55,492 bases of DNA from Planctomycetota bacterium. Its GTDB lineage: Bacteria > Planctomycetota > UBA1135 > UBA2386. The notes under the pieces were generated by a model. The model made no database searches and was not told the DNA's origin. It worked only from the letters and a program-made list of their open reading frames with translations. Below are positions 253-52,789 of the stretch, one piece after another. Where the stretch lies: positions 1-55,492 of the forward strand of contig CANMWZ010000027.1 of NCBI GenBank assembly GCA_947501605.1, given 5' to 3'. The first letter of the stretch is position 1. Each line of letters begins with the position of its first letter. The position numbers were made by a program, and so were the translations under genes.

Positions 253-529
253 GTCGCCCGCTGTCGGGTGGGGGACGACCGCACTTCGACGCAGCGCGAG
301 TCGGCCCCAATCCCGAAGTCGGCGCGGCATGGTGCGAAGGCTGTGCACGGTGCGCCGTCGCCCACAACTCGTTCACCGCTCTCCGCTGCACGGTGAGCCG
401 TAGTCATTACGCGCTCGACCGCGGAATGCGCGCGTTCCGCCGCGCAAATCGGGGCTTTCGCGAATCGGCGGCATCTGCATAGTGAGTCCTAGTCTTGTGT
501 GCAGTGCCCTCGCCGGCATCGCCCTTATC

Positions 530-1078
530 TTGGACTCAAAGAACGTATTCGAAATCCTTGTGCGCGAGCACATCTCGTCGGTGAGCGCATTCTTGCTGTC
601 CTCCGTGCGCAATGCGGCGCAGGCCGAGGATCTCGTGCAAGAAGCCTTCTTGACCGCGTGGTCCAATCTTGCCCGCTATGACCGCACCCTGCCGTTCGGG
701 CCCTGGGTGCGCGGAATTGCCTGTCGTCTGCTCTGGAACCACCGCCGCAAGCTTGGTCGCTCGCGCGTGACGTTCCTCGAAGACGACGACCTTCAGGCGC
801 TCGAAGGGCAGTTCACTCGGTTCGATCGCGTTGTCGGTGACACCCTGGTCGACAAGGTCGATGCGCTCCGCAGCGGGATGCAGCGACTGACCGATCTGCA
901 GCGCCAGGTCATCGACCTGCACTACGAACACAATCTGCCATGTGCCGAGATCGCTACGCGCCTCGGCATCGGCTCCGAATCGGTGAAGAAGCACCTCCAG
1001 CGCGGGCGTGCCGCGCTGCTCCGCGAAATGGATCGTAGACTGGAGGAGCCAGCCTTGCCGATGCGCAAGGAAGCTTGA
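530..1078 (+). CDS. ECF (sigma-70 group 4) RNA polymerase sigma factor
   Basis: Region 2 AEDLVQEAFLTAW..L..YD...PF.PW.RGIA and region 4 LTDLQRQVIDLHY...EIATRLG...ESVKKHLQRGR; likely TTG start at 530 (ORF open from 482). Confidence 0.92.
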   Translation: MDSKNVFEILVREHISSVSAFLLSSVRNAAQAEDLVQEAFLTAWSNLARYDRTLPFGPWVRGIACRLLWNHRRKLGRSRVTFLEDDDLQALEGQFTRFDRVVGDTLVDKVDALRSGMQRLTDLQRQVIDLHYEHNLPCAEIATRLGIGSESVKKHLQRGRAALLREMDRRLEEPALPMRKEA

Positions 1079-1085
1079 ACATCCC

Positions 1086-2003
1086 ATGCATCAGGAACCC
1101 CTCACTTCCTGGTCGAGCGAGGATGATTGGAACGAAGAGGCGCTGCGCGCTGCACCCGACGATCCGTCGGGGTGGCTAGCAGAACAGTGTTTTGTGCACG
1201 GCGTGCTCCGCGCTGCGCATCAACACACCGAAGCCGCGAATGCGGCTCGCATCTCGTCGATCATGGCTGCTATCGACCGTCCTGCAGCGTCCCGCCATCG
1301 CTGGACCAAGGTCGCGGCGGCGGCTTTGGTGCTGTGCGCCTTGGCGTGGCCGGTGCTCTTCGTCGAACACCTGCCCGAGGCCAGGGCCTCGGTGCTGCGA
1401 GGCGCTCGTTTGCTCGACGATGGCGATCGCCGGTTCTCCGTCGAAGCCATCGGCGTCTCGGACCATGGCATTGGCCAGAACCACCAGGTGTTCCAACTGA
1501 CCGCGAGACCAGGCAATCGCTTTGTGGTCATCGGCTCGCTCGACCTCGGCCCGATCCGGTTCGCGGCGATGCGCTTTGGCTGCGATGGCCAAGAGGTCTG
1601 GTTTCATTCGTTCGGGGACTCGGGCGAACTCGCCGAAGTGAAGCGAGCGGGCCCCCTGGAAGAGGCCCCGTCGCTCCTGCGCGGCATTGGCAACGTGCTC
1701 GATCTCGGGTTGCTCGACGTGCACCGGTTTGTCACGGAGATGCCGCGAGAGTTCCACCCGAAGACGTGCGGACGCATCGTCGACGAGGACGGCCAGAAGC
1801 TGCTGCACATCGAAGCGACTGGCGGACCCAAGCGGCCAGGCTTTCACCTGCAACGCGCCGACCTCAACTGCTGCGAGCAGACGGGCTGCATCGTGCGACT
1901 GGAAGTGCAGGCGGACGACGGCCTCGGCCGCACGCAACGCCTCAACTTCGTCGACCAGGGCGCGCTGGCAGTCGACGGGAGCATCTACAAGCGGCCTTGG
2001 TGA
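1086..2003 (+). CDS. Putative anti-sigma factor (single TM, extracytoplasmic beta-rich domain)
   Basis: Starts 7 nt after the sigma stop; short cytoplasmic N-terminus, hydrophobic helix WTKVAAAALVLCALAWPVLFV, then about 200 aa of soluble domain. Confidence 0.6.
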   Translation: MHQEPLTSWSSEDDWNEEALRAAPDDPSGWLAEQCFVHGVLRAAHQHTEAANAARISSIMAAIDRPAASRHRWTKVAAAALVLCALAWPVLFVEHLPEARASVLRGARLLDDGDRRFSVEAIGVSDHGIGQNHQVFQLTARPGNRFVVIGSLDLGPIRFAAMRFGCDGQEVWFHSFGDSGELAEVKRAGPLEEAPSLLRGIGNVLDLGLLDVHRFVTEMPREFHPKTCGRIVDEDGQKLLHIEATGGPKRPGFHLQRADLNCCEQTGCIVRLEVQADDGLGRTQRLNFVDQGALAVDGSIYKRPW

Positions 2004-2074
2004 ACAGCACTGGCGCGGGTCTATGATCCGCCGCCGTCGCGACGCTGGAACACCGGACTCGCGCGTCCCCGCTG

Positions 2075-5000
2075 TTGACCGATCCACCTCCTGAGCTCGC
2101 GCAGCTGCGCGAACTGCTTCACGCGAGCGCCGCGCCGCTCGAAGTCCGCGCCGAGTTGCGCCGGTTGCGGTTGCTCGTCGCTGGCGACGACGCGTTGGCG
2201 GCCGAACTGATCGACGCCGAAGCCCGGTGGTTGCTGCGGTTGGCCTCGCGCCGGCGGTTGTCGGCGACCTTCACAGAGGCGCCGATGGCGGCTGTCCGTG
2301 CCTTACGGGCTCGCAACTGCCGACAAGCACCCGCCACCGACGTCGATGCGCTGTTCGAGCTGGCGGCGACCGCGGCCGAGCTGCGCGTCGGGTTGGATCT
2401 CGATGGGGCCGAGGCCTTGCAACAAGCGCTGCGCGAACGTGCCGCCCTGATGTCCGACGAGGTGGCGCTGTGCCAGGAGGCCGACGAGCGGTGGGCGGCG
2501 CAGGGAGGCGGCGACGACGACCGACCGCTGTTGCTGCAGGCCGCCGTTCTACGCGGGACCGCGGCGCTGCTCGACGGGCTCGGCGCGCGCCTGCAGAGCC
2601 AGAAGCTCCGCCGCCGGGCGCGCCGCTCGCGCTGTGCTGCCGACGATCGCGAACTGCAAGGCCGGCTCGAGTCGCTGCTAGGGGGCCGTGGCGTGGTGCT
2701 GCTCGAGACCACGAGCTTTGGCTTGCTCGTGATCGTCGTCGGGTTGCTGGTCTTGCAGAGCGTGCTGCCGTTAGGGGACGCGACCTTGCGCGCGATGAAC
2801 GCCATCGATGCCGTCGCTGGTTGCTGGTTTGTGCTCGAGTTCGCCTTGAAGCTCGGGCTCGCGCCACGACGCGTGTCTTGGTTCTGCCGCAATGCGCTGA
2901 CCGATCTGCTCCCGGCTCTGCCGGCAGTCCTGTTCTTGCTGCCGGCACCGTCGTTGCCCGGTGGTGCGCAAGATGCCGTCGCGCTTCGAGTCTTGCGGTT
3001 CTTCCGCATGACTTCGGCGGCGCGCTACGTGCAGGCGTTGCGGCCGCTGCTGCGGTCGGTGCGGCTTGTGTTGCTACTGGTGCGCGGCATGGATGGGACC
3101 GTGCGACGCTTCCGCGACGTGCTCGATCGGACCTTCGTCTTCTTGGCCGTCCCGGTGCGCGAGTCGGTTGCCGTCGAGAGCCGCCGCGATGTGCTGTTCG
3201 CGGCACTGCATCGCGAGCAGACGCTGTTTGCAGCACTTCCGGCCGAGGCTCAAGACGAACTGCTGCGGCTGAATCTCGGCGAGATCGCGACGCGAGCCAG
3301 CGCGCTGCCAGGCCGTTGGTCCGAGCCCGATGCCAGGAGTGGCACTCGTGACATCGCCGTGGATTCGGCGTGCGAGTTCTTGTGGACGCTGCGACCTCAC
3401 GATGTCGAGCGCTATTTGGGGCCAGCCGACGTGCGCGCGATCGATCGCATCGTTCGGGTGTTGCGCATCCCGCCGCTCGGGTGGTTGCCGATCTTGCGCC
3501 GATTTCGTGTGCACCAACGACTGGAGACGGCGGAGGAGCGCATCGTCGCGTTCGGACGTCGTATCGCCGACTGGCTGATGAGCTGGCAGGAACGGCTGCA
3601 GTTCTTCGCTGACCTGCATGGGATCGTGACCGGGCCGCAGATCCTCGATCGCGTGGCCAGCGCGATGGTCAAGGCGAGCCAGCGCCCAGCGGTCCGGCTC
3701 CTGCTGTTCGGCGGCCTGTTCGCCGTGCTCAATCTGTTTTGGGAAGAGAACTGTCTGTCCACCATTGTCGGGTTGCCGCTGCTGCGGCTCGGCAGCGTCT
3801 GCCTCGTGCTGCTGGCGACTGGCTGGTGGCTGAAGCGCATCGCCGGCGATGCCAGCGAGACCTATCGCCTCACGAGTGAGGCTCATTTCGTCGCGCTGCT
3901 AGGGCTCGTGAAGCAGCGGCACGAGGCAGAAGATGTCGAGTTTCTCGCGCGACGAACGATCGCAGACGCGGCCATCGGCGACACACCCGGACTGTTGCGC
4001 CACCAGTTGGCGAACACACGCGCCGGCGTGCCCGTCGACGTCGGTGGCTTCGATGAGCGCGAGGAACAACTCGCGAGTCGCGTGGCGCTGCTCTACCTCC
4101 ACTTCTTGGGCGGCGCGCTGCTGCACAAGAGTGACGTCAAGACCACCGAGCAGTTGCTGGCAAACCTGTCGCTGGAGAGTCTGCGCTACGCGCATCTGGG
4201 CTTTACCCGCAGGGACAAGCAACGCTTGCGTCGATTGCGCCTTGACGACGGCTCCGTTCTGCGCGGGCCATTTCTCTGGTTCCGCTTCATCACCGAGTCG
4301 ATCGCCGTCGAGACCAGCAAGCGCATCCTGGAGTACAACCGCCGCTGCGTGCCGCTTTTGGAGCGCGCGATGCTGTCGCCGCAGCGCCAGCAAGCACTCG
4401 TCGATTGGCTGCAGCAGCGATGCGAATCACGCGCGGGGCGGACGATCGAGCGACTTCCGGCTCCGGGGTCTGGCACGCGCTTTGGCACGACGGAGTTCCA
4501 TGCCTTGCACTTCCTCACCGCGGATCAAGAGCGCGATGCGCACGTCGAAGCGCTGTTTGGAACCGAAGTGCTCAGGGCCTTGCGCGCGGATCGCCGCAAC
4601 ATGGTGCGCGCGATCTTCGGCATGCGCTCGGCGCAACAACTGGCTGGATCGACGCGGACCTTCAACGCTTGGCAGACCTACTGGGCGCGCCTGTCGCATG
4701 GCCGCATCCTGCTGTTGCCGATCCTGCTGCCGGCACGGGCGCTGCGTCTGCTGGTCTGGGTCGTTGCCCGCATCCGGCAGATCGTCCGCGAGGTGCTCGC
4801 GCCTCAGCTCGAGATGCGCCGTCGTGAAGACGCCGTTACGACCTTCTCCGTGGCGCTCCGCAAGATCCACCGCATGAAGGCCCCGGGTCTGCTGGAGGCC
4901 ATTTCGATGCGCCTCGACGTCGACCCGGTCTACAGCGGTGCTGCCGCTGCGTTTGGTGAGGCGCAAGCCGGAGAACCGGTCGAGCTGCAGCGAGACCTCG

Positions 5001-5650
5001 ACTTCTTGCTGCTGCACGAACGCGAGCGTGCGACGTTCTTGGCTGCAGCGGAGCGCAATCGCGAACAGGTGGCACGGTTGCATGCGGCGTTGCAGTGGTT
5101 GCCTCAGATTGGCGATCCGGACGCCTCGGCGGCGGCGAAGAACGACGGCGAGCTGGCGGTGACGATTGCATGGATCACCGATCGCGAGCGCGTGCGCACG
5201 CTGACTTCGGCGGAGGCCTTCCGGGTCATGGAGTTGCCCGGCATCCTCGCCGGCGAAGGCGATGTGCGGCTGCTCCGTCGCGTAGCCTGGTGGGTGTGCG
5301 ACCTGGTCTCGGCGCATCCGGTCGATCGGTGGTTGATCCAGCAGCGCATTCCTGTCTCGCGCCGAGGTGCGCGTCGATTGCGTGCCGCGTGGTTGCGCGA
5401 CAGTGGCGTCCGCGCCGTCATCCAGGCGTGGAACGAACTCGATCCCGGCGCTGACCCGGTGGCCGTAGCTGCCGGGCGCTTCCGCGAGATCTGGCGCCAG
5501 GGTGCCGAAGTGCGCCGCCAGTTGGTCTCGTTGCGCGCCATTCAGTCGTTGTCGGTGCTGGACATTCGCAACTACCGAGCCCTCGTGTTCGACCTCGGGG
5601 CCTACGCCGAAGATGGCGAGGATCCGTCACTTGCCCGCAATCTGCCGTGA
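2075..5650 (+). CDS. Large membrane protein with an ion-transport (S1-S4 voltage-sensor-like) domain
   Basis: S2 IDAVAGCWFVLEFALKL, S3 WFCRNALTDLLPALP, S4 ALRVLRFFR...ALRPLLRSVRL; long ORF filling the gap with coding-like bias. Confidence 0.75.
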   Translation: MTDPPPELAQLRELLHASAAPLEVRAELRRLRLLVAGDDALAAELIDAEARWLLRLASRRRLSATFTEAPMAAVRALRARNCRQAPATDVDALFELAATAAELRVGLDLDGAEALQQALRERAALMSDEVALCQEADERWAAQGGGDDDRPLLLQAAVLRGTAALLDGLGARLQSQKLRRRARRSRCAADDRELQGRLESLLGGRGVVLLETTSFGLLVIVVGLLVLQSVLPLGDATLRAMNAIDAVAGCWFVLEFALKLGLAPRRVSWFCRNALTDLLPALPAVLFLLPAPSLPGGAQDAVALRVLRFFRMTSAARYVQALRPLLRSVRLVLLLVRGMDGTVRRFRDVLDRTFVFLAVPVRESVAVESRRDVLFAALHREQTLFAALPAEAQDELLRLNLGEIATRASALPGRWSEPDARSGTRDIAVDSACEFLWTLRPHDVERYLGPADVRAIDRIVRVLRIPPLGWLPILRRFRVHQRLETAEERIVAFGRRIADWLMSWQERLQFFADLHGIVTGPQILDRVASAMVKASQRPAVRLLLFGGLFAVLNLFWEENCLSTIVGLPLLRLGSVCLVLLATGWWLKRIAGDASETYRLTSEAHFVALLGLVKQRHEAEDVEFLARRTIADAAIGDTPGLLRHQLANTRAGVPVDVGGFDEREEQLASRVALLYLHFLGGALLHKSDVKTTEQLLANLSLESLRYAHLGFTRRDKQRLRRLRLDDGSVLRGPFLWFRFITESIAVETSKRILEYNRRCVPLLERAMLSPQRQQALVDWLQQRCESRAGRTIERLPAPGSGTRFGTTEFHALHFLTADQERDAHVEALFGTEVLRALRADRRNMVRAIFGMRSAQQLAGSTRTFNAWQTYWARLSHGRILLLPILLPARALRLLVWVVARIRQIVREVLAPQLEMRRREDAVTTFSVALRKIHRMKAPGLLEAISMRLDVDPVYSGAAAAFGEAQAGEPVELQRDLDFLLLHERERATFLAAAERNREQVARLHAALQWLPQIGDPDASAAAKNDGELAVTIAWITDRERVRTLTSAEAFRVMELPGILAGEGDVRLLRRVAWWVCDLVSAHPVDRWLIQQRIPVSRRGARRLRAAWLRDSGVRAVIQAWNELDPGADPVAVAAGRFREIWRQGAEVRRQLVSLRAIQSLSVLDIRNYRALVFDLGAYAEDGEDPSLARNLP

Positions 5651-5681: not shown

Positions 5682-6890
5682 TCAGAGCGGCGGTATCGGC
5701 AGCGTCGTTCTTGGTGCGGCTGCCACGCCGGTCCGCCACGCCTGCAGTTCCTCGAACGTCGCGTGAGGTGCCAGACGCGCGACCTTCGAGAGCAGCAGGC
5801 GCGCGTGTCCCGATGTCTCGCGCAGTTCCTCGTCCGGGTCCTCGTCGGCACTCGCGAGCACGAGCATCTCGTCGAGACCGGCGACATCGCCCGCTGCGAT
5901 CCGGAGTCGTGCGAGGTGGTACTGGAGGATCGGCGCGAAAGCCGCGCTCTGAGTCGGGATCCCGTCGCGAGCGCCGACCAGTTCGAGGCAGTAGAGGGCG
6001 CGCGCGCGGCGCGGCACGGAATCGGTGCCCAGCGCTACTTCCCAGAGCGCAGTCCGGATCTTCGGCGACTCGGCGTAGCGCTTCAGTGCCGGAGCCAGTC
6101 GATCGATACCGGCCGCATCGGCGATGTCGATGCGGTCGAGCAGCGCAGCGAGGCCCTGTTCGCTCGGCGGCACGCGACCGAGCAACGCAGCAATCGCTGC
6201 ATCGTCCGGGAAGTCGTCGACGAGGGCGAGGAGTGTCGGGACGTGTTCCTCGGCGAGTTCGAGCGGCATGGCGGCGAAGGCCAGCTGTCGCACCTTGCGC
6301 TCTTCGGAGCGTAGGGTCGAGAGTATCGACCCCGTGAGTTCGAGTGGCAGGGCTGCGCGGGCCAGAACCATCTTCAGCGCCGCCTCGACGATCTGAGGTT
6401 CGTCGTTGTCGAGCATGGCTTCGAGCTCGCTGGCCGGCCATGGCTCGAGTGTGTCGATGGCCAGCAGGGCGGCGACGCGGGCCGCGCCCTTGGTCTGCGG
6501 CAGAGCGTTCTGCAGCGCATCGATCGAACCTTCGACCGGCAGATCCGCAGCGAGGGCCGCAGCGCCCGGGAACAGCGCGTTCGCTGGCTGGCCGAGAACG
6601 GTGAGTGTGGCCGGACCGAGCGTGGCGATATGCAGGCGCGCGTGTTCGAGCAGCATGCGATGTTGACCTGGCACGAGGCAGGTGCGGCGTCGATCGAGCA
6701 CTGCGCGCAGCTGTCGAATGGCCGAGGGCTCGTTGGTTGCGAGCGCTGCTTTCGGCTGGCGCTGCGTCTCGCGCAGCAGCGTCACCCCGGCCGTGGCCAT
6801 GGCGAGCAAGGCGATGCCGAACCCGGCGCGACGCGTCCACCGTTCGCGCGCGTAGCGAGCCGCCCTGAGTCTGGTGGTTGCCGTGCGCAT
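5682..6890 (-). CDS. Membrane-anchored HEAT-repeat-like protein
   Basis: ATG at 6890 abuts the upstream stop at 6892; N-terminal TM AGFGIALLAMATAGVTLL; HEAT-like units (LDNDEPQIVEAAL, LRSEERKVRQLAF, DEDPDEELRE). Confidence 0.65.
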   Translation of the reverse strand: MRTATTRLRAARYARERWTRRAGFGIALLAMATAGVTLLRETQRQPKAALATNEPSAIRQLRAVLDRRRTCLVPGQHRMLLEHARLHIATLGPATLTVLGQPANALFPGAAALAADLPVEGSIDALQNALPQTKGAARVAALLAIDTLEPWPASELEAMLDNDEPQIVEAALKMVLARAALPLELTGSILSTLRSEERKVRQLAFAAMPLELAEEHVPTLLALVDDFPDDAAIAALLGRVPPSEQGLAALLDRIDIADAAGIDRLAPALKRYAESPKIRTALWEVALGTDSVPRRARALYCLELVGARDGIPTQSAAFAPILQYHLARLRIAAGDVAGLDEMLVLASADEDPDEELRETSGHARLLLSKVARLAPHATFEELQAWRTGVAAAPRTTLPIPPL

Positions 6891-6891
6891 T

Positions 6892-7989
6892 TCAGTTGTT
6901 GGTCGAGATCTCTTGCCAGCCGTTGAACGCCACGTAGCGGCCGGTGAGGTTGGCGGCGAGGATCGTGCCCGCCTCCGAGTAGCGCAGGTCGACATTGCCG
7001 GTCATCGTCAGTTGGGGGCTGGCGAGTCCCGCCAATACGCCACCGTGGACCTGCACGTTGCCCGTCGCTGCTTCGACGGTGCCGGTGCAGACGATGACTC
7101 CGTACCAGCGAAATGTTCCTGCCATGCGCAGAGTCCCGTTCACGACCAACAGGCCATATCCCGTCGAGTTGCCCTGGATGCGGACGTCGCCTTCACGGTA
7201 GGCGATCACCGGCGAGGTCGAGGTTCCGTAGTTCACCGAGCTGACGGTCGAGTTGGTGATGACGACGCTGGCGCTGTTGCGCGCGAAGTCGACGATCTGC
7301 TGCACGTCGATTGGAGCTGCTACGCCGATGCTCGGTGTTACGCCGACTCCCGTCACCTTGGTCCGTTCGGCACCGACGAGTTGTGCATTGAGTTGCGCCA
7401 GAGTTCCGGGTGGCGTCATTGCCATACCGAAAGTGTTCCCCGAGCCCACCAGGGTGCCGTTCAGCGCGTAGTTGTTGCCTCGGGCAATGCCGCTGCCACT
7501 GACGGTGATGACGGATGCGGGGTTCGTGATCGTGACCGCGGCTTCGAGCTCTGGCAGATACGACGAGAACCCCAGGTAGGCCGCGACGCGGCGCTGGTTG
7601 GTTTGCGTGTTTCCTGTGCACGTCACGCGGAACACATCCTCGTCCGCCTCATCGACCGCGCCGTCGCCGTCGTTGTCGAGGCTATCGCCTTTCAGGTAGA
7701 CACAGTTGACGGTGAAGGTGCTGCCCCCGGTGAGGCTGCCCGAAAACGTGTACTGCCGACCGACGCCGGCGACCAGGGTGCCGCGGCGCGCCTCGTTGAG
7801 CGCGTAGTCGATGCCCGACTCGGCCGCGAACATCGCCTGCTCTTCGCGAATCTCGAGCCCGAGTCGCTGGTTGCGCTCGGTCATGGTCTGCAGGTAGCTG
7901 CCGATCACCAAGATCATCGGCACGAGCACGAGGACCAGAGCGATCGTCGCGAAGCCTGCCTCGTTCTCGCGTACGTTGCGTGCTTGCAT
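6892..7989 (-). CDS. PilX/GspK-like minor pilin with C-terminal beta-helix-like repeats
   Basis: EAG|FATIALVLVL leader lacking E+5; QAMFAAESGIDYAL PilX N-terminal motif; GxVxIxGN / GxLVVNGxL repeats. Confidence 0.75.
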   Translation of the reverse strand: MQARNVRENEAGFATIALVLVLVPMILVIGSYLQTMTERNQRLGLEIREEQAMFAAESGIDYALNEARRGTLVAGVGRQYTFSGSLTGGSTFTVNCVYLKGDSLDNDGDGAVDEADEDVFRVTCTGNTQTNQRRVAAYLGFSSYLPELEAAVTITNPASVITVSGSGIARGNNYALNGTLVGSGNTFGMAMTPPGTLAQLNAQLVGAERTKVTGVGVTPSIGVAAPIDVQQIVDFARNSASVVITNSTVSSVNYGTSTSPVIAYREGDVRIQGNSTGYGLLVVNGTLRMAGTFRWYGVIVCTGTVEAATGNVQVHGGVLAGLASPQLTMTGNVDLRYSEAGTILAANLTGRYVAFNGWQEISTNN

Positions 7990-8000
7990 GATGTCGGACC

Positions 8001-8615
8001 TCAGTTGTTGCGGAGGAAGAGCGTCTCGCGCGCGGTGAAGCGTTGCACCGATCCGTCGCGCGGCCGCGCGGCCGATCGCAGTTCGATCGTGAGCAGTCGA
8101 CCGGTCAGCGTGAACGTCGCAGCTTCGACGTTGTTGGCCATCGCGACGGGGATGCCGTCGTAGTCCATGATCAGTCGGGCTTCGTCGATGATCCCGTCGC
8201 CGTCGTCGTCGAGGTCGTTGTCGGTCTCGCCGTTCTCGAGCTGCAAGCGGAGGCTTCGGGCATCAGTGAGCAGCGCGGCGTTGAGCGATAGTTCGCCTGT
8301 GGCCGAGCGGAACTGGATCGACGGGCGTGGGTCGCCGTCGATGGGCTCCATCCACTCGTCCGCAGCGGTCGCGTAGAGCGGAACGTCGGCGGCGGTTGAC
8401 ATCACGCGGTAGCTCGAGATCGAGCACGGACGCATGACCTGGCTGACCCGCACGATCGAACGCTGGAGCGATTCCATCGCCACAGCGACCTTGTCGTCGA
8501 GGTTGAGGCTCGTCGTGGCGGCGCCGAGACAGGACGTGACCGCCGCCAGCACCATGGAAAGGAGCGAGGCGACGAGCATCAGTTCGACGAGAGTGAAGCC
8601 GGATTGACGGTTCAT
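8001..8615 (-). CDS. Prepilin-type N-methylation protein (PilW/GspJ-like minor pilin)
   Basis: MNRQSG|FTLVELMLVASLLSMVL class III signal peptide. Confidence 0.85.
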   Translation of the reverse strand: MNRQSGFTLVELMLVASLLSMVLAAVTSCLGAATTSLNLDDKVAVAMESLQRSIVRVSQVMRPCSISSYRVMSTAADVPLYATAADEWMEPIDGDPRPSIQFRSATGELSLNAALLTDARSLRLQLENGETDNDLDDDGDGIIDEARLIMDYDGIPVAMANNVEAATFTLTGRLLTIELRSAARPRDGSVQRFTARETLFLRNN

Positions 8616-9088
8616 CGCCGTTCTCCCATCAACGTCTGCATGGAGAAGTCGCCGCCGCGCGTGGCGCCGCGCCAGCGAACGCGGGCCGTCACGACGTAGA
8701 GTGCGTTGTTGACCTGCGACCTTGCGTGTGCCGTGACCGTCAACTGACCTGGCAGGCCGTCGGCATCGCCTTCGATCGGGGTCAGGCCCGTTGTCTGGCC
8801 GTTCTGTCCCGGGATTTCGAAGCCCTAGCCGTTCAACGTCGGCAGGGTCGCCATGTCGGCGTCACGCAGCGTCTCGAGCGTATTGCGACAGGCAGACATC
8901 GCGAGAATCAGTTCCCCGTGCATTCGCCGCTGCGCTTGGTGCTGGGCGACGCCGGTCATCGCGCCGCCGATCAAGAGCACGGCGATGACCATGCCGGTCA
9001 GCAGTTCGACGAGAGATACGCCGCTTTGCCTCGGAGCAGTTCCGGTGCTCGGCGACTCGAGAGCATCTGCAAGTGTGAGGATCGGCAT
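8612..9088 (-). pseudogene. PilV/GspI-like minor pilin interrupted by one in-frame TAG (8825-8827)
   Basis: QSG|VSLVELL leader; after TAG the same frame reads GFEIPGQNG...LYVVTARVRWRGATRGGDFSMQTLMGERR and ends in a TGA overlapping the next ATG (ATGA). Confidence 0.75.
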
Positions 9089-9182
9089 GGGCGCGCGGAT
9101 CACCCTTTGATCGACCATAAGTTTTCATGACTGAAGATTGGAACCCACCCGATCTCGTTACGAGAGCCCCAGGCAACTCCGT

Positions 9183-16718: not shown

Positions 16719-17240
16719 ATGGCTGCCGCCTCCGTGACCTCAGACCAAACCGCTGACGCGACTTTCGCCGCCTTCCTGCAAGCCGCGCAACCGCGCGTGC
16801 TTCAGTTTTTGGCGCGCGTGTGCCCAGGCGACGCCGAGGACGTGCTGCAGGAGACGCTGGCCAAGGTCTGGCGACTGCGCGCGAGTTTCGACCCGTCACA
16901 GAACGGCGAGGCTTGGTTGCTACAGGCCGCCTTTCGGTCTTTCTGTGACCACCGTGCGCGCACACGGCGGCAGGCAGTTCTTGTCGACGACAAGGCCGTC
17001 GCGGAACTCGAAGCCCCGAGGATCGCTTGCGGGCTCGAACTGCGCGACGAGGTCGAGTCGCGACTGCAGTCGCTGCCGCCGCTCGAGCGCGTGTTGCTGG
17101 TGGCGTTCCATGGCCATGGCCGTTCGCTGAAGGATCTGGCCGCGCGGCACGGGCTGCCGCTCAACACCATCAAGTCGCATCTGCACCGAGCCCGGGCCCG
17201 GTTGGCAGAACGGCGCGGAGGCCACGATGACGCCCGCTGA
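16719..17240 (+). CDS. ECF RNA polymerase sigma factor
   Basis: DAEDVLQETLAKVW...FD...EAWL and LPLNTIKSHLHRARARL. Confidence 0.92.
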   Translation: MAAASVTSDQTADATFAAFLQAAQPRVLQFLARVCPGDAEDVLQETLAKVWRLRASFDPSQNGEAWLLQAAFRSFCDHRARTRRQAVLVDDKAVAELEAPRIACGLELRDEVESRLQSLPPLERVLLVAFHGHGRSLKDLAARHGLPLNTIKSHLHRARARLAERRGGHDDAR

Positions 17241-17643
17241 GTTCCAGACTCTTCTCGACCGGTGCCTCGATGAGCGGCGCGATCCGTTTTGCGACAGCAC
17301 CCTCTGTGCCTACCTCGAGACACGTCCCGACGAGGTGGAGCGGGTCGCGTCGTTGGTGCAAAGACTCGATGTGCTACGCCGCATTGCGGCTGTGCCGCGG
17401 TCGCGGGCGCGGTGGCCGATCGCGCTCGCAGCGCTCGCGGCCACCGTCTTCTGCCTGCTGCGGCTGTGGCCGTCGCCACTGCCAGTCGAGCCGCGGCCTG
17501 CACTCGGCCGTGTGCTGCGTGCAACTCTCCACCCGGTAGTTGCACGCGCACCGTTCGTCGCGACCGTCACCGTGCGCGAAGTCATGGTCAATCAGCCGGG
17601 CCTGCGCCTCGAAACCTTCACCACTCGCTCGGAACGTTTATGA
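17227..17643 (+). CDS. Putative anti-sigma factor
   Basis: Overlaps the sigma gene, GGAGG RBS; single TM WPIALAALAATVFCLL. Confidence 0.6.
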   Translation: MTPAEFQTLLDRCLDERRDPFCDSTLCAYLETRPDEVERVASLVQRLDVLRRIAAVPRSRARWPIALAALAATVFCLLRLWPSPLPVEPRPALGRVLRATLHPVVARAPFVATVTVREVMVNQPGLRLETFTTRSERL

Positions 17644-18671
17644 AGCGCACTCCCCTGATTCTCTGGTTGGTCTTGTTGGCATTGGTCGCCGGCGTGCGGG
17701 CGCAGAAGTTGCCGCTGGCAGATGGCACCGGGCGCGTGGCCCAACTGGTCGACGTGCGGGCGCTGAGTCCAACCGCTCCCGGTGTGGAGCGCGATGTCGC
17801 TGCCGACCGTGCGTCGCTGGCCTCGTTGGCGTTGTTCGTGCGCCGGTTCTGCGAGCCGCCTCTTGCTCCAGACCATGATTTGCAGCCGTTGGGCGAGCGC
17901 TACCTCGCCGTGCTGGCGGGGCCAGAGCAGATCGCTTTTGTCGAGCGCATGATCGCGACAGCCAAGGCTCACCAGGGGGAACCTCTGCTGGTCGAGTGCC
18001 GCATCCTTAGTTTGACCGACGCGAGCTTTCAGAAGCACCTCGCGCCGTTTCTGCCGGCAACTGCGGTTGCACCGCGAGCGGAAGTGGTGACGGCGGAGCC
18101 CAAGCTGCTGGGCTTCTTGTTCCAGCAAGGTGAGTCGAGCCGCGATGCGGCGCGCGTCGCGATCCTCGGTCCAGGCCAGATGCAACCGCTGTTCAAGTTG
18201 CTGACCGCTGACGCGGCGACCGATCTGTTGCAAGCCCCGTCGATCCTCGTCTTGCCGCTGCAATCGGCCAGCATCGCGGTCGGCGAAGACGTTGCCTACG
18301 TCAAGGACTACGAACTCGACGTTGTCGACGGCAGACTCGAGCCGCGCAAGGTCATGGGCAGTGTGTTCGACGGCGTTCGCATCGACGCTACGTGCGGCTT
18401 GATCGATGCCGACCGCATCGCCCTCGAGTTCGCCCTGCAGCAGCAGGTCTTGGTCCGGCCGATTGCGGAGTTTCGTACGACGCTGGCACAGTCCGGCGAC
18501 GTGGCGATCAAGGCAACGATCGAGGTGCCGTCGAGCACGGGTTGTCGTACCGAGCAGTCGCTGGTGCTGCCTCTGGGTGCAAGCGCCGTCGTCGCCGCCA
18601 AGAATGGGGAAGGCACCTGGTGCGTGACCACCGTGACGGTGACACAGTCCAACGGTCGGTCGCCCCGCTGA
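17640..18671 (+). CDS. Secreted protein with secretin/GspD-like domain
   Basis: ATGA-coupled start; signal peptide; N3-like LAVLAGPEQIAFVERMI; LLVECRIL; LLQAPSILVLPLQSASIAVGEDVAYVKDY. Confidence 0.55.
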   Translation: MKRTPLILWLVLLALVAGVRAQKLPLADGTGRVAQLVDVRALSPTAPGVERDVAADRASLASLALFVRRFCEPPLAPDHDLQPLGERYLAVLAGPEQIAFVERMIATAKAHQGEPLLVECRILSLTDASFQKHLAPFLPATAVAPRAEVVTAEPKLLGFLFQQGESSRDAARVAILGPGQMQPLFKLLTADAATDLLQAPSILVLPLQSASIAVGEDVAYVKDYELDVVDGRLEPRKVMGSVFDGVRIDATCGLIDADRIALEFALQQQVLVRPIAEFRTTLAQSGDVAIKATIEVPSSTGCRTEQSLVLPLGASAVVAAKNGEGTWCVTTVTVTQSNGRSPR

Positions 18672-18835
18672 GCGCATGACCGACTCCGCTGGCTCGACAA
18701 TCCAGCGGTCTCGCCATGCATGTGGCCCGAACGCCGCCGTCTCCGCACTGGAGCCGCCGCAGCGCGCGCCTATCCTGCGCGGGTGCTCGCACTCCTCACT
18801 TCCGGCCCGGGCCGCGTCGCCCGCTTCGCGGCACC

Positions 18836-19774
18836 GTGACCGCGTCGCCAAAGCCGGACGAGCTGGCGGAGGTCCTCGCCGAGGTGCGCCGCATCGAGGT
18901 GCAGAGCAATCGCCTCGTCAGCAGCGTGATGGCTGGCGGCTACAGCTCGGTGTTCCGCGGCTCGGGCTTGGAGTTTCTCGAGGTCCGCGAGTTTGCCGAC
19001 GGCGACGACCCTCGACTCATCGACTGGAAGGTGACGGCGCGCACGGGCCGACCGTTCGTCAAGCGGTTCGTCGACGAGCGCGAGCTGACTGTCATGTTCT
19101 TGCTCGATGTGTCGGCGTCGATGGATGGCGGCTTCGGGGTGTGGTCGGCGCGGCAGATGGCAGTGCGGTTGTGCGCGTGCCTTGCGTTTGCCGCGGTGCA
19201 GAACCACGACAAGGTTGGGCTGATTGCCTTTGGTGAACGCGAGGTTGCGGCCTTCGTGCCACCCCAGCGCGGTAGCGCGCACGCACTACGCATCGTGCGC
19301 GATGGGCTGCTGTTGCAGGTCGGGGGAGGGGGCACGGGCGCAGTTGGCGCTCGCGGGATCGACGCTGCGCTGGATCGTGCCGCGCGCCTGTTGAAGCGCC
19401 GGTCGGTCGTGTTCGTGCTCTCGGACTTCCTTGGCGGCGAGATCGGTCGGCCCCTGCTCCGGTGTGCGCAGCGCCATGACCTCACGGCGGTGCGCGTGCT
19501 GTCGCCGGAGCTCTTCCCGCCGCGCGCGGGGCTCGTGCGCCTCCGGGATCCGGAGACCGGCGTCGAGCGCATCGTTGATTGGAGCAACGAACGCGTGCGC
19601 CTAGCCTGGCTCGCGCGGGTCGCACGGTGGCGGCAACTGCGCGACGCCGAGTTCGAGCGCGGCAACATCGACGTCGTCGACGTGCCGGTGCCGATGCTGC
19701 GCGACCGCGATGCGATCGCCGGACCGATCCTGAAGTTCTTCCGCATGCGCCAACTGCGCGGGGCCAAGCGGTGA
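18836..19774 (+). CDS. DUF58 domain protein (MoxR partner)
   Basis: YSSVFRGSGLEFLEVREFADGDDPRLIDWKVTAR; FVDERE; LDVSASM; LSDF. Confidence 0.93.
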   Translation: MTASPKPDELAEVLAEVRRIEVQSNRLVSSVMAGGYSSVFRGSGLEFLEVREFADGDDPRLIDWKVTARTGRPFVKRFVDERELTVMFLLDVSASMDGGFGVWSARQMAVRLCACLAFAAVQNHDKVGLIAFGEREVAAFVPPQRGSAHALRIVRDGLLLQVGGGGTGAVGARGIDAALDRAARLLKRRSVVFVLSDFLGGEIGRPLLRCAQRHDLTAVRVLSPELFPPRAGLVRLRDPETGVERIVDWSNERVRLAWLARVARWRQLRDAEFERGNIDVVDVPVPMLRDRDAIAGPILKFFRMRQLRGAKR

Positions 19775-20697
19775 CGGCGATTGCGCGGCGGTGCTGGGTC
19801 GCGGCGTTGATGGCTGCGGTGGCGTGCAGCGAGCAGAACGGTGATCCGATCGCGGCCAGGGATTTGGCGGTGCGCGTCGAGGTTGCCAATGGCTCTGAGG
19901 AAATCGGGTTTGGGGAGCCGTTCGAGTTGCGCGTGGTGCGCACCTTTCGCGCCGACCTGCGGCTCGAGGCGTTTCACGACCGCGATCTAGCACCACTGCA
20001 GCTGCGTTCGCTCGGGGTCGAGCAGCGCACCGGCGACGGTCGGATCGAGGAGGTGCATCGGTTCTCGGCGCGAGCGTTCGTGCTCGAACGTGTCGTCGTA
20101 CCGCCGTTGCGCCTGTTGGCAGTGCCCAAGACCGGCGGTGCGCCGCTGCGGGCCGAGAGCAGCGAAGTGACGCTGCGCGTGCGTACTTCGCTGCGTGCGG
20201 TCGGCGATCGCGAGATCGAGCAGTCGCTCGAGTTGGTGCCGATGCCGGCGGCCTCGCGCCCATGGCTCGCCGTACTGTCGTTGTTGGTGGTTGCGGTCAT
20301 CGCCTTTTGGCGTTGGCCAAGGCCGCGTCTGGTCGCGGCGCCCACGTTGCCGGCGCTCTTGGCCCCACCTCTGGTCGATGTGCGCGCCTTGGCGCATGCA
20401 GCGCTGCTGCAGCTGGAGGCGAGTGCGCTCGGGGACCGCGAGTTTGCCGAATCGCTGGCGACGGTCGTGCGCGAGTTCGCAGCTGCGATCCTTGGACGAG
20501 GTATGAGCACGCGCACGACGGACGAACTCGTTGCCGACCTCGGGCGCTGCGATGCGGCCGCACGAAGTTCCCTGCTCGCGGCGATGACGACTTGCGATCT
20601 CGTCAAGTTTGCCTGTGGCGAGCTCGGTCCTCCTCGACGTCTCGCAGTGCTGGCCTCAGCCCGCGCGTTTCTCGATGGCGCAAAGGTGCAGCGATGA
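19771..20697 (+). CDS. Bat-operon membrane/lipoprotein (BatD-like hypothetical)
   Basis: GTGA-coupled; lipobox-like MAAVAC; TM; RTTDEL...CDLVKFA motif typical of this position in bat operons. Confidence 0.7.
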   Translation: MTAIARRCWVAALMAAVACSEQNGDPIAARDLAVRVEVANGSEEIGFGEPFELRVVRTFRADLRLEAFHDRDLAPLQLRSLGVEQRTGDGRIEEVHRFSARAFVLERVVVPPLRLLAVPKTGGAPLRAESSEVTLRVRTSLRAVGDREIEQSLELVPMPAASRPWLAVLSLLVVAVIAFWRWPRPRLVAAPTLPALLAPPLVDVRALAHAALLQLEASALGDREFAESLATVVREFAAAILGRGMSTRTTDELVADLGRCDAAARSSLLAAMTTCDLVKFACGELGPPRRLAVLASARAFLDGAKVQR

Positions 20698-21701
20698 GCA
20701 TGTGGGCGATCGGCGACACCGGATGGTCGTTGCAAGATCCGCAGTGGCTCGCATTGCTGCCGATCGCGGCGGTCATGGCGGTGCTCGCGCGGCGAGGCCT
20801 GCGGGTGCCCGCGGCGACGTTCGCGCCGCTGTCTTTGCAGGACGACGAGCCCTTGCCGGCAACGTGGCGAACGCGATGCGTGAACCTCCCCGATTGGCTG
20901 TCGGTGTTGGCGTTTGCTGTGGTCGTGCTCGCGCTCTCTCGACCCGTGGTTCGTGTCGCCATGCCGGCGATCAAGACCGGGATCGATCTCGTGGTCTGCC
21001 TCGATGTCTCCTCGTCGATGGCAGCTGCGGATATGGATGCACGACGCGATCGCCTCGCGGTTGCGAAAGCCGCGGTAAAGGCCTTCGTAGCTGGCCGGCC
21101 TGACGATCGCATCGGATTGGTGCGCTTTGCCCGGTATCCCGACGTTGTGTGCCCACCGACGCTCGATCACCACGCCCTGGTGCAGATGCTCGAGGACGTG
21201 AGCCTGGTCCAGCGCGACGGGCCCGAGGACGCTACTGGCATCGGTGCAGCCATCGCGCGGTCAGTGCAGATGCTGCGCGCGAGTACACAGCCGTCGCGGC
21301 TCGTCGTGTTGGTCACCGATGGCGCGGAGAACGTCGCCGCAGCGGGAACGCCCGACGAGATTGGTCCGCTGCAAGCGTCGCAGGCAGCGCAGTTGCAGGG
21401 CGTCCGCGTCTACGCGCTGGCAGTCGGCGTCGGAACCCGCGCCCAGGACGGCACGGAAGTGCGGATGGACACCAGCCAGATCGAACAGCTTGCCCAGCGG
21501 ACGGGGGGGCGGTTCTTCGCCGCCCGCGACGCGAACGCCTTGGCTGAGGTGTATGCCGAGATCGCGCAACTCGAGCGCTCGCCCGTGGAAGAGCCACGCA
21601 GCGTCTTCGAGGATTGCGCCGCGAGCGCGATCGCGCTGGCACTCGTGCTGCAGTTGCTCGGCGTGATGCTGCGGCGCACGGTGCTGGAGGTGCTGGCGTG
21701 A
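20694..21701 (+). CDS. batA: BatA-like VWA domain protein
   Basis: LQDPQWL N-terminus; ALSRP; MIDAS DVSSSM; DRIGLVRFA; CPPTLDH; VTDGAEN. Confidence 0.88.
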   Translation: MSMWAIGDTGWSLQDPQWLALLPIAAVMAVLARRGLRVPAATFAPLSLQDDEPLPATWRTRCVNLPDWLSVLAFAVVVLALSRPVVRVAMPAIKTGIDLVVCLDVSSSMAAADMDARRDRLAVAKAAVKAFVAGRPDDRIGLVRFARYPDVVCPPTLDHHALVQMLEDVSLVQRDGPEDATGIGAAIARSVQMLRASTQPSRLVVLVTDGAENVAAAGTPDEIGPLQASQAAQLQGVRVYALAVGVGTRAQDGTEVRMDTSQIEQLAQRTGGRFFAARDANALAEVYAEIAQLERSPVEEPRSVFEDCAASAIALALVLQLLGVMLRRTVLEVLA

Positions 21702-22732
21702 TCGCATTGGAGTTTGGCAATGCGTGGGCACTTGCACTGCTCTTGCTGGTGCCGCCCTTTTGGCTGTTCCTGCGCGCGCGCGATCGTCGGCGCCGGGACT
21801 TGCGCCGCCAGTGGCTCGGGCCGCGCGCTCCTGCACTGTCGCCCATGGCGACCACGAGAGACCGTCGCGAACGCGCCGCGCGGCCGTTTGCTGTCGGTTC
21901 GCTCGCCGCGCTCGTGCTAGCACTCGCTGGGCCTCGCTGCGGCGAACCCGAGGTCGGTGTCGAGGTGCGTGGTCAAGACCTCGTGCTGTGCTTCGACGTT
22001 TCGCGCTCGATGCGGGCCCGCGACCTGTCGCCCGATCGCATGGAGGCCCTGCGCCGAGCCGTCGCCGAACTGCTGCTGGCGGCGCGCGGGGATCGGATCG
22101 CGCTGGTTGCCTTCGCAGGGGAAGCACGGCTGTGCGTGCCATTGACGACCGATCTCGAATCGCTCGGACAGGTGTTGGCGACGATCGACGAACTCGCCGT
22201 CGCGCGCGGCGGCACCGACCTCGGTGCAGCGTTGGCCGTTGCGCAGCTTGCGCTGGTCGGCAGTGAGCGCGGCACGGTGTTCGTGTTGACGGATGGCGAT
22301 GACCTCGACGGACGTGGGCTGCAGGTGGCGCGCCGTTGTGCTGTGCAGGAAGTCGCGGTGCACTGCGTCGCATTCGGTAGCGAACGCGGCAGCAAGATCC
22401 CGGTTGCCAGCGACGGTGGCGAGACGTACTTGCGCGACCGCAGTGGTGCAGAGGTAGTGAGTGCGATCGACCCGCGAAGCCTGCGGGCGATGGCGGTAGC
22501 GACGGGCGGCGAGTTCGTGCTAGCGGCGGATGTCGGCGATGCCGTGCTCGTCGAACTGTGGCAGCGGACGGTGCGCGGACGGGCTTCAGCACAGCTCGCA
22601 GAGAGCGGAGAGTTGCGCCGTCCGGAGCGCTTCCAATGGGCACTCGCGCTTGCGGTTGGCTTGTGGCTGCTCGGGGTGATGTCCGCGCACTCGGGGCGCG
22701 CAGTCCGGGTGCATTCCTCCACCGGCGTTTGA
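21698..22732 (+). CDS. batB: BatB-like VWA domain protein
   Basis: ALAGP; DVSRSMRARDLSPDR; GDRIALVAFAGEA; PLTTD; LTDGDD; ERFQW. Confidence 0.88.
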   Translation: MIALEFGNAWALALLLLVPPFWLFLRARDRRRRDLRRQWLGPRAPALSPMATTRDRRERAARPFAVGSLAALVLALAGPRCGEPEVGVEVRGQDLVLCFDVSRSMRARDLSPDRMEALRRAVAELLLAARGDRIALVAFAGEARLCVPLTTDLESLGQVLATIDELAVARGGTDLGAALAVAQLALVGSERGTVFVLTDGDDLDGRGLQVARRCAVQEVAVHCVAFGSERGSKIPVASDGGETYLRDRSGAEVVSAIDPRSLRAMAVATGGEFVLAADVGDAVLVELWQRTVRGRASAQLAESGELRRPERFQWALALAVGLWLLGVMSAHSGRAVRVHSSTGV

Positions 22733-22794
22733 GCCGACTCGAGGACGCAGTCGTTGCCGCGGACGTTGCGTGCTTGGTGTAGCATCCGCGCCCG

Positions 22795-23328
22795 ATGCTG
22801 ACCGCTGACCAGTTCCGTTCGCTTGCACTCGCGCTGCCTGGAGCTGCCGAAGGCGAGCACATGAACCATCCGGACTTTCGCGCCAACGGCCGTGTCTTCG
22901 CCAGCCTGGATGCCACCAAGACGCGTGGCATGGCGGTGCTGACGCCAGTGCAACAGCGCCGCATGCTGCAGGCGAGCAGCGCGTTTGCCGCGGCGAAGGG
23001 CGCCTGGGGCCGGCAAGGCTGCACCATGATCGACCTCGCGACGGCACTGGGTGACATGGTGCGCGCGGCTCTGACCAGTGCCTGGGAGAACGCCATGGCG
23101 CAGGAGACCAAGGCGACCAGGAAGGCGTCGGCGACACGAGGCCGTGCCGTGGCGAAGGCTCAAGGCGGCAGCAAGATCGCGGCCGAGAAGATCGCGGCCA
23201 AGAAGCCCCTTGCCAAGAAGCCCCTTGCCAAGAAGCCCGGTGCCAAGAGGACGGCGGCGAAGCAGTCGACCAAAGGGAAGCCCGCCGCCGGGAAGCCGGC
23301 CGGGCGCAAGCGCGGCGGTGCTGGTTGA
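22795..23328 (+). CDS. MmcQ/YjbR family DNA-binding protein with Lys/Ala-rich tail
   Basis: FRSLALALPGAAEGEHMNHPDFRANGRVFA; GAWGRQG.T; AKKPL repeats. Confidence 0.85.
   Translation: MLTADQFRSLALALPGAAEGEHMNHPDFRANGRVFASLDATKTRGMAVLTPVQQRRMLQASSAFAAAKGAWGRQGCTMIDLATALGDMVRAALTSAWENAMAQETKATRKASATRGRAVAKAQGGSKIAAEKIAAKKPLAKKPLAKKPGAKRTAAKQSTKGKPAAGKPAGRKRGGAG
23173..23250 (+). repeat. 15-bp coding tandem repeats (AKKPL/KIAAE units)
   Basis: AAGATCGCGGCC(G/A)AG x2, then GCCAAGAAGCCCCTT x2, GCCAAGAAGCCCGGT, GCCAAGAGG. Confidence 0.85.
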
Positions 23329-23365
23329 TGCCTGGTTGCGCCCGCCCCATGATCGCGCTCCGCCC

Positions 23366-45022: not shown

Positions 45023-45168
45023 CGTGAAACTCTGCGGACGGGGGGGAAAGGCCCTGATAGGTTCGACCACTTGCCCCTCGGCGTCAACGGGGCATCTGCA
45101 GGGCGCAGCGACCCCTTCTAGTGGTCGCAACCGCGCAGTTGCCAAGCTCCTTCCTCTCGTCCGCTGAA

Positions 45169-46809: not shown

Positions 46810-46962
46810 GTGACAGTTCCCGGTGGTGAGGGCGCGCACCATCAATGGCACTGGCCAATCTGTCAATCCCCGGTGAAGCCTGTGCCAAGAGTGGGTCCAC
46901 GCCGCAGCGTGCCTCGTTGACGGCCTGCCGTCAGTATCGCTGTCGGGTGTCCGTCATTGGCT

Positions 46963-52601: not shown

Positions 52602-52678
52602 CGGAGCGTAGCGCAGCCTGGTAGCGCACCTGCATGGGGTGCAGGGGGTCGGAGGTTCAAATCCTCTCGCTCCGACCA
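52602..52678 (+). tRNA. tRNA-Pro (GGG)
   Basis: CGGAGCG acceptor stem; D-arm GCGCAGCCTGGTAGCGC; anticodon arm CCTGC-ATGGGGT-GCAGG; T-loop GGTTCAAATCC; encoded CCA. Confidence 0.97.
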
Positions 52679-52789
52679 CTTCTTAACTGCTTGTCGAGAG
52701 CCCAGTTGGGCGCTCCCCGGCGCGGTGCCGGGCGCGAGTTAGAGCAGCCTGTTCTCGGTGTAGGACTACACCGGGGGAGCAGCGCAGCG

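Follow-up and report, generated by a model that had tools for sequence, protein, structure and literature searches.

Does a voltage sensor in a bacterium always come with an ion pore? The question is raised by a gene at positions 2075 to 5650 of a 55,492-nucleotide stretch of forward-strand DNA from a Planctomycetota bacterium (the window; contig CANMWZ010000027.1 of assembly GCA_947501605.1). A 2023 review states that every prokaryotic voltage-sensing domain, as known and database-checked, is joined to a pore for K+, Na+ or Ca2+ (PMC10377628). An earlier note, made from the nucleotide sequence alone, had described the product of this gene as a bacterial voltage-sensor domain that lacks a pore and is fused to a large uncharacterised protein, and profile searches, a structural model and conservation support that description. 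At the level of sequence and model, the conserved single-copy family to which the gene belongs breaks the rule that all prokaryotic sensors have pores.

The open reading frame (ORF) starts with TTG, encodes 1191 residues and is present in a single copy in its own genome. Its GC content at the three codon positions (0.73/0.48/0.81) is coding-like. AlphaFold2 models the protein as nearly all helix, with a predicted local distance difference test score (pLDDT) of 84.7 and a predicted template modelling score (pTM) of 0.81. No internal repeats were detected with hhalign (best probability 3.8%).

Voltage-sensor module and search for a pore

Ion_trans is the sole Pfam family found in the protein, and this is the sole Ion_trans match in its genome. 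The match spans residues 215–329 and profile positions 7–122 of 241, which corresponds to S1–S4 only (E 3.3e-5). It scores 23.6 bits against a cut-off of 25, and 26.5 bits in the genome-wide search. The earlier note had proposed checking whether the match stops at S4, and it does. A profile of residues 190–610 from 52 relatives matches 143 PDB sequences at E<=1, and all 60 of these that were listed (Kv, Nav, KvAP, HCN, BK and hERG) end no later than profile position 144, where S4 stops. The closest sensors by sequence are those of Kv and Nav channels (KvAP, Kv4.2, Kv3.1 and Nav1.8, E about 1e-6 to 1e-5), and S2 of the window protein was aligned to S2 of Kv4.2. By structure, the top match of residues 186–331 is the Ci-VSP sensor (PDB 4g7v; Z 9.1, root-mean-square deviation (rmsd) 5.2, 129 aligned residues, 9% identity), whose score is tied with those of the Kv3.1, Kv4.2 and KvAP sensors. 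Because a Z of about 9 is common among helical bundles, the sequence evidence carries the sensor assignment.

The S2, S3 and S4 motifs named in the earlier note are all present in the translation. The S2 motif WFVLEF contains F252 (position 2828) and E255 (2837), the S3 motif RNALTDLLP contains D277 (2903), and S4 carries R305, R308 and R311 followed by R317, R323, R327 and R330 (2987–3064). The second arginine-periodic run that the note had set apart is present, but it continues the register of the first, so that both form one long S4 with positions 305, 308, 311, 314, 317, 320 and 323, neutral at 314 and 320 in this lineage. The resemblance to Kv and Nav sensors extends to the S2 aspartate and FxxE, the S3 aspartate and the RxxRxxR run.

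Conservation was followed in several sets of relatives. A profile of the part after S4 gathered 712 clusters at 50% identity. Among the best 150 of them, 142 carry the sensor, and the other eight (673–863 residues) start at or after the S4 end, as N-terminal fragments would. Across the 142 diverse relatives, position 211 is Glu or Asp in 131, 228 is Glu or Asp in 118 (Q228 in the window protein), D245 is kept in 137, 252 is Phe in 100 and Leu in 42, 255 is acidic in all 142 and 277 in 130. Arginine occupies each of the seven S4 positions in 93–125 of them, and up to 140 of the 142 over S4 positions including 327 and 330. At least five of the seven S4 charges are retained in 99 relatives and three or fewer in 18. 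Among 120 close relatives, R305, R308 and R311 are each found in 118–119, W314 in 105 and Q320 in 113; the window protein has S314 and Q320. In a set of 265 proteins (284 aligned minus 19 that lack sensor columns), the charge-transfer triad of S2 Phe or Leu, S2 Glu and S3 Asp, as set out in PMC6392501, occurs in 245 (209 with Phe), and a three-charge S4 run in 247. The S4 arginines and the S2 and S3 acidic residues are thus conserved in relatives, a point on which the earlier note had made its reading depend. By sequence and model, S1–S4 is a sensor with full charge-transfer anatomy, and we infer that it senses voltage.

Behind S4, the picture departs from that of channels. A filter motif of the form T[VILT]G[YF]G is absent from the protein and from 149 of 150 relatives, and the AlphaFold2 model contains no pore helix, re-entrant helix or S5-P-S6, split or whole. 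The claim that no S5-P-S6 and no TVGYG-like filter follow S4 is therefore borne out by profiles, motif scan and model. The short transmembrane hairpin that the note had placed near 3700–3830 lies at 3686–3832 (residues 538–557 and 560–586); in the model it consists of two helices joined by a turn of four residues. Its G546–G573 span measures 28 residues in the window protein, with a median of 38 among relatives, and the hairpin offers no space for a pore helix and filter. Profile comparison of the hairpin with S5–S6 segments gave no match, and its structural matches are generic two-helix hairpins. The gap from S4 to the hairpin is about 200 residues, the D340–P538 span ranging from 198 to 246 in the 142 relatives, and only two to three hydrophobic segments lie outside the sensor. 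Compared with the six-transmembrane (6TM) channels of the Kv, Nav and HCN types, the protein has neither S5-P-S6 nor filter, and its S4 is set about 200 residues from the next membrane helix, against about 6–15 residues from S4 to S5 in Kv channels according to PMC13095418. On profile and model evidence, the protein is without a canonical pore.

The hairpin and core, their sensor-less form and a candidate partner

The part beyond S4 is a second unit. S4 is modelled as one unbroken helix (residues 302–345) that runs into the cytoplasm, with low confidence at 290–314, and continues as a single helix into a 160-residue linker domain leading to the pre-hairpin helix. Beyond the hairpin, residues 604–1191 modelled alone are all helical (pLDDT 89.5, pTM 0.88), in keeping with the large, uncharacterised and mostly helical C-terminal part of the earlier note. 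The AlphaFold and Foldseek comparison suggested there gave a core with no PDB match and a sensor that matches Ci-VSP by structure alignment. Foldseek returned nothing from the PDB at E<=0.001 for either the full model or residues 604–1191, and nothing from viral models. VIA-align of the 588-residue core against 48,161 chains reached Z 5.2 at best, and a further VIA-align comparison 5.1, with complex-I-type membrane subunits and helical bundles at rmsd 5–13, which we read as background. The fold is best described as unmatched rather than shown to be new, the model exceeding the 400-residue size at which matches weaken. Pfam gave no match below E 0.06 in 30 C-terminal parts of relatives, and PDB sequence searches with core profiles gave best E values of 0.93, 0.45 and 0.62. 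The first of these, to the adenylyl cyclase Rv1264, was rejected as chance. Two likenesses, of RxxxR...DxxxxG at 929–955 to the cyclic di-GMP motif of PilZ and of DxxDG at 676–680 to that of CDP-alcohol phosphotransferases, were dropped as Pfam found neither family. The ESM Atlas holds no cluster for the core, and the whole protein leads to one Ion_trans/Planctomycetota cluster (0.81). Covariation (mutual information with average product correction, about 189 effective sequences) mainly reflected invariant columns and clade signal and was left unused.

The core is strongly conserved. Weighted conservation is 0.97–1.00 for R840, R845, R861, R929, K930, R933, R946, D950, D974 and R1154, above that of the S4 arginines (about 0.8). 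D676, D679 and D687 occur in 127, 130 and 136 of 147 distant relatives; close relatives carry H676 in 120 of 120 and G679 in 10 of 120. If the core has a metal or phosphate site, the acid/His motif at 676–687 and the arginines would be the most likely place for it.

The hairpin and core also exist alone. Four weak matches of the phylum search are ORFs of 565–575 residues, collinear with residues 500–1175. Profiles of the sensor-less and fused forms align at 99.7% hhalign probability (E 2.2e-26), a sensor-less profile from 12 sequences does so at 99.8% (E 3.7e-30, 463 columns, 20% identity), and the reverse search from the sensor-less profile recovers the window gene. Of the genomes searched, 8 of 61 in one family and 5 of 12 in another carry a sensor-less gene, and so do nine metagenome loci, three of them near-identical. 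A hidden Markov model (HMM) of the sensor had no match in the 12 genome and nine metagenome loci, where flanks measured about 1.5–5 kb and some ORFs were cut by contig ends. The sensor-less proteins keep two hydrophobic segments. Their match begins near residue 500, and the linker domain (346–505) has no counterpart in them. The core is common to both forms except about 853–922 and much of 1045–1125; the first gap takes in helix 877–908, the third hydrophobic helix of the protein, which probably is amphipathic and lies on the membrane. Shared residues include K613, D676, D679, G680, D687, Q693, W735, F736, F808, R840, R933, P937, R946, D950 and R1154. In 12 sensor-less proteins, D676, D679, G680, D687, R840, R946 and D950 are invariant, R1154 is found in 11 and R933 in 10. 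These core residues are kept, whereas W585, C576 and P538 of the hairpin region are not. Because hairpin and core exist alone as a protein of about 560 residues, we regard the sensor as an add-on to an independent effector, and it may have been gained or lost around a stand-alone form. Fused and sensor-less genes occur together in none of 59 genomes, which is not significant, as about 0.7 overlaps were expected.

In 7 of 22 sensor-less loci, five in genomes of one family and two on metagenome contigs from a divergent group, the sensor-less gene is followed by one that encodes 235–290 residues, with a soluble tail and about four hydrophobic segments; in two of the seven this second gene overlaps the sensor-less stop codon. 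Pfam gives this four-helix protein no name; its tail may be akin to a bacterial PH domain. Homologs were found in 122 of 301 Planctomycetota genomes. Of the 55 genomes with the fused gene 53 have one, as do all 4 with the sensor-less gene (57 of 59 with either form), compared with 65 of the 242 that have neither. The two fused-gene genomes that lack it are 86% and 91% complete. The genome of the window carries an unlinked homolog (L126:4315-5034, G000:C11). We treat the four-helix protein as a lead, a candidate partner of the effector.

Several gene arrangements were observed around these genes. In one family, the sensor-less gene, the four-helix gene and an AMP-binding ligase-like gene (PF00501) stand in a tight row (L074:605-4513, L075, L095 and L076). 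In single cases the sensor-less gene is followed by a GGDEF diguanylate cyclase or an adenylate-guanylate cyclase-like gene (L124:1477-2604 and L092:2573-3856). Beside the four-helix homolog at L126:4315-5034, in head-to-head orientation, is a gene pair for NfeD and a flotillin-like FloA.

A search for the fused family with residues 200–1191 gave 227 relatives among 8000 candidates. The 120 of them that were listed are 851–1238 residues long and belong, where a taxon is given, to Planctomycetota or to 'bacterium'. Named members include bacteria of Candidatus Brocadiae, Isosphaeraceae and Planctomycetaceae. In a genome survey that covered Planctomycetota, 55 of the 301 genomes from the phylum carry the fused gene (E below 1e-119), as do 38 of the 151 from the class and, besides the genome of the window, 56 of 60 from the host family. 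Two matches in one genome were pieces of one gene, and the family is single-copy. The homolog survey proposed in the earlier note thus found the sensor–hairpin–core architecture conserved, and outside the host family no neighbours recurring beyond close kin. The sole match of a genome-contig search, in a Bacteroidetes sequence (L001, E 1e-4), was discarded as it has no score on the family HMM. A plasmid search gave no match, and a search of proteins of 30–233 residues gave six fragments, a size range that could not show the 560-residue form. The gene is covered by contigs from two metatranscriptome runs of a single study, but its neighbours on both strands are covered to a similar depth, which DNA carry-over might explain. 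In one genome the sensor-fused gene lies in at least seven pieces across frames (L078, G167:C1:648000-655000), a pseudogene or the result of assembly errors. In another, an MscS mechanosensitive channel gene overlaps the fused-gene start (L040:10849-12546), an arrangement absent in the other 19 loci.

A proposed voltage-switched effector and its rivals

The explanation we favour, at about even weight, is a voltage-switched, non-conducting membrane effector in which a Kv/Nav-type S1–S4 would be combined with an independent hairpin and core unit of about 560 residues. We consider it plausible, though somewhat less assured, that this is a native bacterial converter of voltage into biochemistry, a prokaryotic counterpart of the voltage-sensing phosphatases (VSPs) with an unrelated output, whose enzyme or signalling core of undescribed fold acts with the four-helix partner. 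A cell may switch a separate activity by membrane voltage through this protein.

Bacterial resting potentials are strongly negative. At such a potential S4 would lie inward, as can be argued from VSP and SLC9C1. Depolarisation would move S4 outward, the direction described in PMC13095418 along with inward movement on hyperpolarisation. S4 could then pull the linker domain and reposition the hairpin-anchored core on the inner face of the membrane. The weakest step would be the last, a switch of activity at the 676–687 acid/His motif, R840, R933, R946, D950 and R1154. That activity would most likely be to bind or turn over a lipid or nucleotide that bears phosphate, with the four-helix partner in the same complex. 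The sensor-less forms would be the same hairpin and core unit without voltage control.

Several observations weigh against this explanation. The hairpin region is the most conserved of the protein (0.55, compared with 0.46 for the sensor), which also fits a pore. The window protein departs from most relatives at 676 and 679, with His and Gly in place of two aspartates, and two of its S4 positions are neutral (S314 and Q320). Neither Pfam, the PDB nor structure searches gave an enzyme family or fold for the core. Model confidence is lowest in S4, and because the pLDDT is below 50 at 290–314, the coupling path can be read from secondary structure only. The partner is unlinked in the genome of the window and present in 65 genomes without a detected effector. 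Its co-occurrence with the effector overstates independence because genomes share ancestry.

The strong conservation of the hairpin feeds the most serious rival, a voltage-gated channel or transporter with a non-canonical path, in which hairpins of several subunits, with or without the four-helix protein, would line a P-loop-less pore and the core would serve as gate or ligand-binding regulator. Such pores are known from TMEM175, Orai and CorA. G546, G573, C576, G583 and W585 occur in 254, 262, 249, 262 and 262 of the 265 proteins, the order of sensor, linker, hairpin and cytoplasmic domain resembles that of 6TM channels, and a membrane partner co-occurs. However, the hairpin matches no S5–S6 profile and only generic hairpins by structure, it stands far further from S4 than in Kv channels, and the sensor-less proteins have lost W585, C576 and P538 while they keep the core residues. 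We consider this rival unlikely, though it deserves real weight.

A second rival grants the effector and denies the switch: S1–S4 would serve as a membrane anchor, or as a sensor of lipid, pH or tension, and would not respond electrically in the physiological range. The effector does exist without a sensor, 42 of the 142 diverse relatives have L252, 18 keep three or fewer S4 charges, and the lineage of the window has Trp or Ser at 314 and Gln at 320. Nevertheless, most relatives retain five or more of the seven charges together with acidic counter-charge positions, and R305, R308 and R311 are nearly invariant in close relatives, which makes this rival improbable.

The earlier note had also suggested a link to the extracytoplasmic function (ECF) sigma and anti-sigma pair directly upstream, by which the protein could sense depolarisation, signal to the anti-sigma factor and free the sigma factor. 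The pair does lie directly upstream on the same strand, 71 bases away, and it does so in 17 of 22 loci of the same family; in 40 family genomes with both the gene and the anti-sigma factor, the two are within about 3 kb on one contig in 33 and on different contigs in seven. In contrast, the pair is upstream in none of 18 loci of other families, where no neighbour recurs beyond close kin. The anti-sigma factor is present in 43 of 60 family genomes; it was not found in 16 of 56 with the gene and is present in 3 of 4 without it. Moreover, the gene has a −10-like box of its own. A TAnnnT box is found in 12 of 18 homologous gaps, compared with 2 of 18 on the other strand and with a mean of 4.1 and a maximum of 10 in 2000 shuffles, the pattern having been chosen after the gaps were inspected. 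A consensus scan found no full two-box promoter before the gene, and the box points to a housekeeping-type promoter. The motif upstream of the relatives' sigma genes has no strict match in the genome of the window. The position of the pair thus stands and the functional link does not follow from it: it is weak, a matter of family-level synteny, and the signalling rival is very unlikely.

An Hv1-like proton channel, in which S1–S4 itself would conduct, has still less to recommend it. The module is pore-less with a helical S4 extension, close relatives have Trp in S4, and neutral S4 positions could leak. Hv channels are defined by an acidic mid-S1 residue and a WR-type S4 motif (PMC10377628). 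Against this, a mid-S1 acid occurs in 1 of 265 proteins and WR in S4 in 4 of 265, the window protein not among them, so that the proton channel offered in the earlier note is hardly credible.

Least credible is the sensor half of a split Kv channel with a pore encoded elsewhere, for which one may cite the K-pore gene (Ion_trans_2) in 51 of 61 family genomes and the gating of split hERG and Eag1 channels (PMC13095418); however, Ion_trans_2 has no match in the genome of the window (91% complete) or in three congeners (62–84% complete), all four family genomes without the sensor gene have the pore gene, and none was found among 115 neighbours scanned. Because 10 of 61 family genomes, including all four of the genus, carry the gene with no Ion_trans_2 match, a pore in trans is not required.

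Comparison with known systems places the voltage-switched effector near two of them. Like Ci-VSP of the TPTE family, the protein has a pore-less S1–S4 whose S4 leads into a cytoplasmic effector; it differs in lacking a PTEN-like phosphatase, in its extra membrane hairpin, in its bacterial origin and in its larger number of S4 charges. HCxxGxxR is the PTEN-like phosphatase motif of the VSPs. It occurs in none of the 265 proteins, and the core is all-helical. As in the sperm Na+/H+ exchanger SLC9C1 (PMC13095418), cytoplasmic helices connect an added sensor to a membrane unit that is also found alone, but Pfam found no 13-helix transporter or cyclic-nucleotide-binding domain here and the partner unit is a hairpin with a helical core. 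TMEM266 and Hv1 share the pore-less S1–S4 and helical S4 extension, and mid-S1 is non-polar as in TMEM266, the position being matched by inference; TMEM266 conducts no protons (PMC6392501). The Hv selectivity aspartate and RxWRxxR of Hv1 are absent, and a large folded effector follows the sensor where TMEM266 has a predicted disordered tail. The protein would work like a VSP or SLC9C1 and yet be a member of neither family, nor of Hv1 or the 6TM channels.

A literature search, with most subscription journals and supplements outside it, returned nothing on the family and otherwise eukaryotic or general hits. The family is real and conserved and, within the literature searched, undescribed. If the sensor works, it would be a molecular answer to how a bacterium reads its membrane potential without passing ions, an unrelated output would join the short list of non-channel proteins coupled to a sensor (VSP, SLC9C1 and TMEM266), and a new sensor scaffold would become available. 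The sensor-less relatives and the candidate partner make the idea testable, effector activity first and voltage control second, and were the converter to prove real, the sensor-less form would be a natural voltage-independent control.

Feature coordinates and the rest of the window

The coordinates are collected in Table 1. Residues 1–190 are the least conserved part (mean column conservation 0.27) and are longer in most other families; the stretch ahead of the sensor match has a median of 325 residues in the 142 relatives.

Table 1. Positions in the window of the sensor gene, its predicted parts and its upstream neighbours
Feature	Positions	Strand	Details
Whole gene	2075..5650	+	1191 aa; N-terminal helical domain, voltage sensor, helical linker domain, membrane hairpin, helical core
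N-terminal cytoplasmic helical domain	2075..2644	+	residues 1–190; ends as basic helix running into S1
S1	2705..2764	+	residues 211–230; E211 inner acid, V221 hydrophobic mid-S1, Q228 outer-acid position
S2	2777..2860	+	residues 235–262; D245 outer counter-charge, F252 charge-transfer residue, E255 inner counter-charge
S3	2870..2932	+	residues 266–286; D277
S4	2978..3109	+	residues 302–345; R305, R308, R311, S314, R317, Q320, R323, R327, R330
Cytoplasmic helical linker domain	3110..3589	+	residues 346–505, S4 to hairpin; proposed coupling element
Pre-hairpin helix and two-helix membrane hairpin	3590..3883	+	hydrophobic 538–557 and 560–586; helices 520–555 and 560–603 in model
C-terminal all-helical core	3884..5647	+	residues 604–1191
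Candidate metal/ligand motif [D/H]676-x-x-D679-G680-x-x-x-H684-x-x-D687	4100..4135	+	H676 and G679 in window protein
Hydrophobic-basic helix 877–908	4703..4798	+	invariant P882; from hydrophobicity and model
Near-invariant basic/acidic stretch	4859..4933	+	R929, K930, R933, P937, R946, D950, Y953; R840 and R1154 elsewhere; charged residues at weighted conservation 0.98–1.00
−10-like box TATGAT, sigma-70-type	2022..2027	+	in 71-base gap ahead of gene
ECF sigma factor	482..1078	+	neighbour; likely start TTG 530; Sigma70_r2 and r4_2 matches
Probable single-pass anti-sigma factor	1086..2003	+	neighbour; 305 aa, ATG 1086; weak NF052375 match

For the sigma gene, TIGR02989 is the best NCBIfam match, below cut-off, and TTG 530 is its more likely start. 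The anti-sigma factor, more likely started at ATG 1086, has a weak match to the antisigma family NF052375 (E 0.018), a conserved N-terminal motif and a hydrophobic helix. In 15 of 20 loci (L033, L034, L055-L066 and L070), GTCCC-N15-17-GACAAT lies about 10 bases before the sigma start and is a candidate autoregulated, leaderless ECF promoter; the motif is absent in the window. Upstream, the window begins with what looks by eye like the 3' end of a prolyl-tRNA synthetase-like gene (1–252), with a homolog upstream in 8 of 22 family loci. Downstream, a cluster of pseudopilin type (PilX N-terminal, N-methylation motif), together with an unnamed 437-aa gene, lies on the reverse strand (5682–9118) and converges on the sensor gene, and this cluster is kept only in the congener locus L053. 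Further on, a second ECF sigma factor precedes a DUF58 gene, two VWA genes and one TPR/SH3 gene (16719–26336), a cluster that we take to be Bat-like. Two tandem di-haem cytochrome c peroxidase (CCP_MauG) genes occupy 43394–46866 on the reverse strand. At 52602–53974, tRNA-Pro(GGG) is directly followed by a phage-type integrase, which likely marks the edge of an integrated element.

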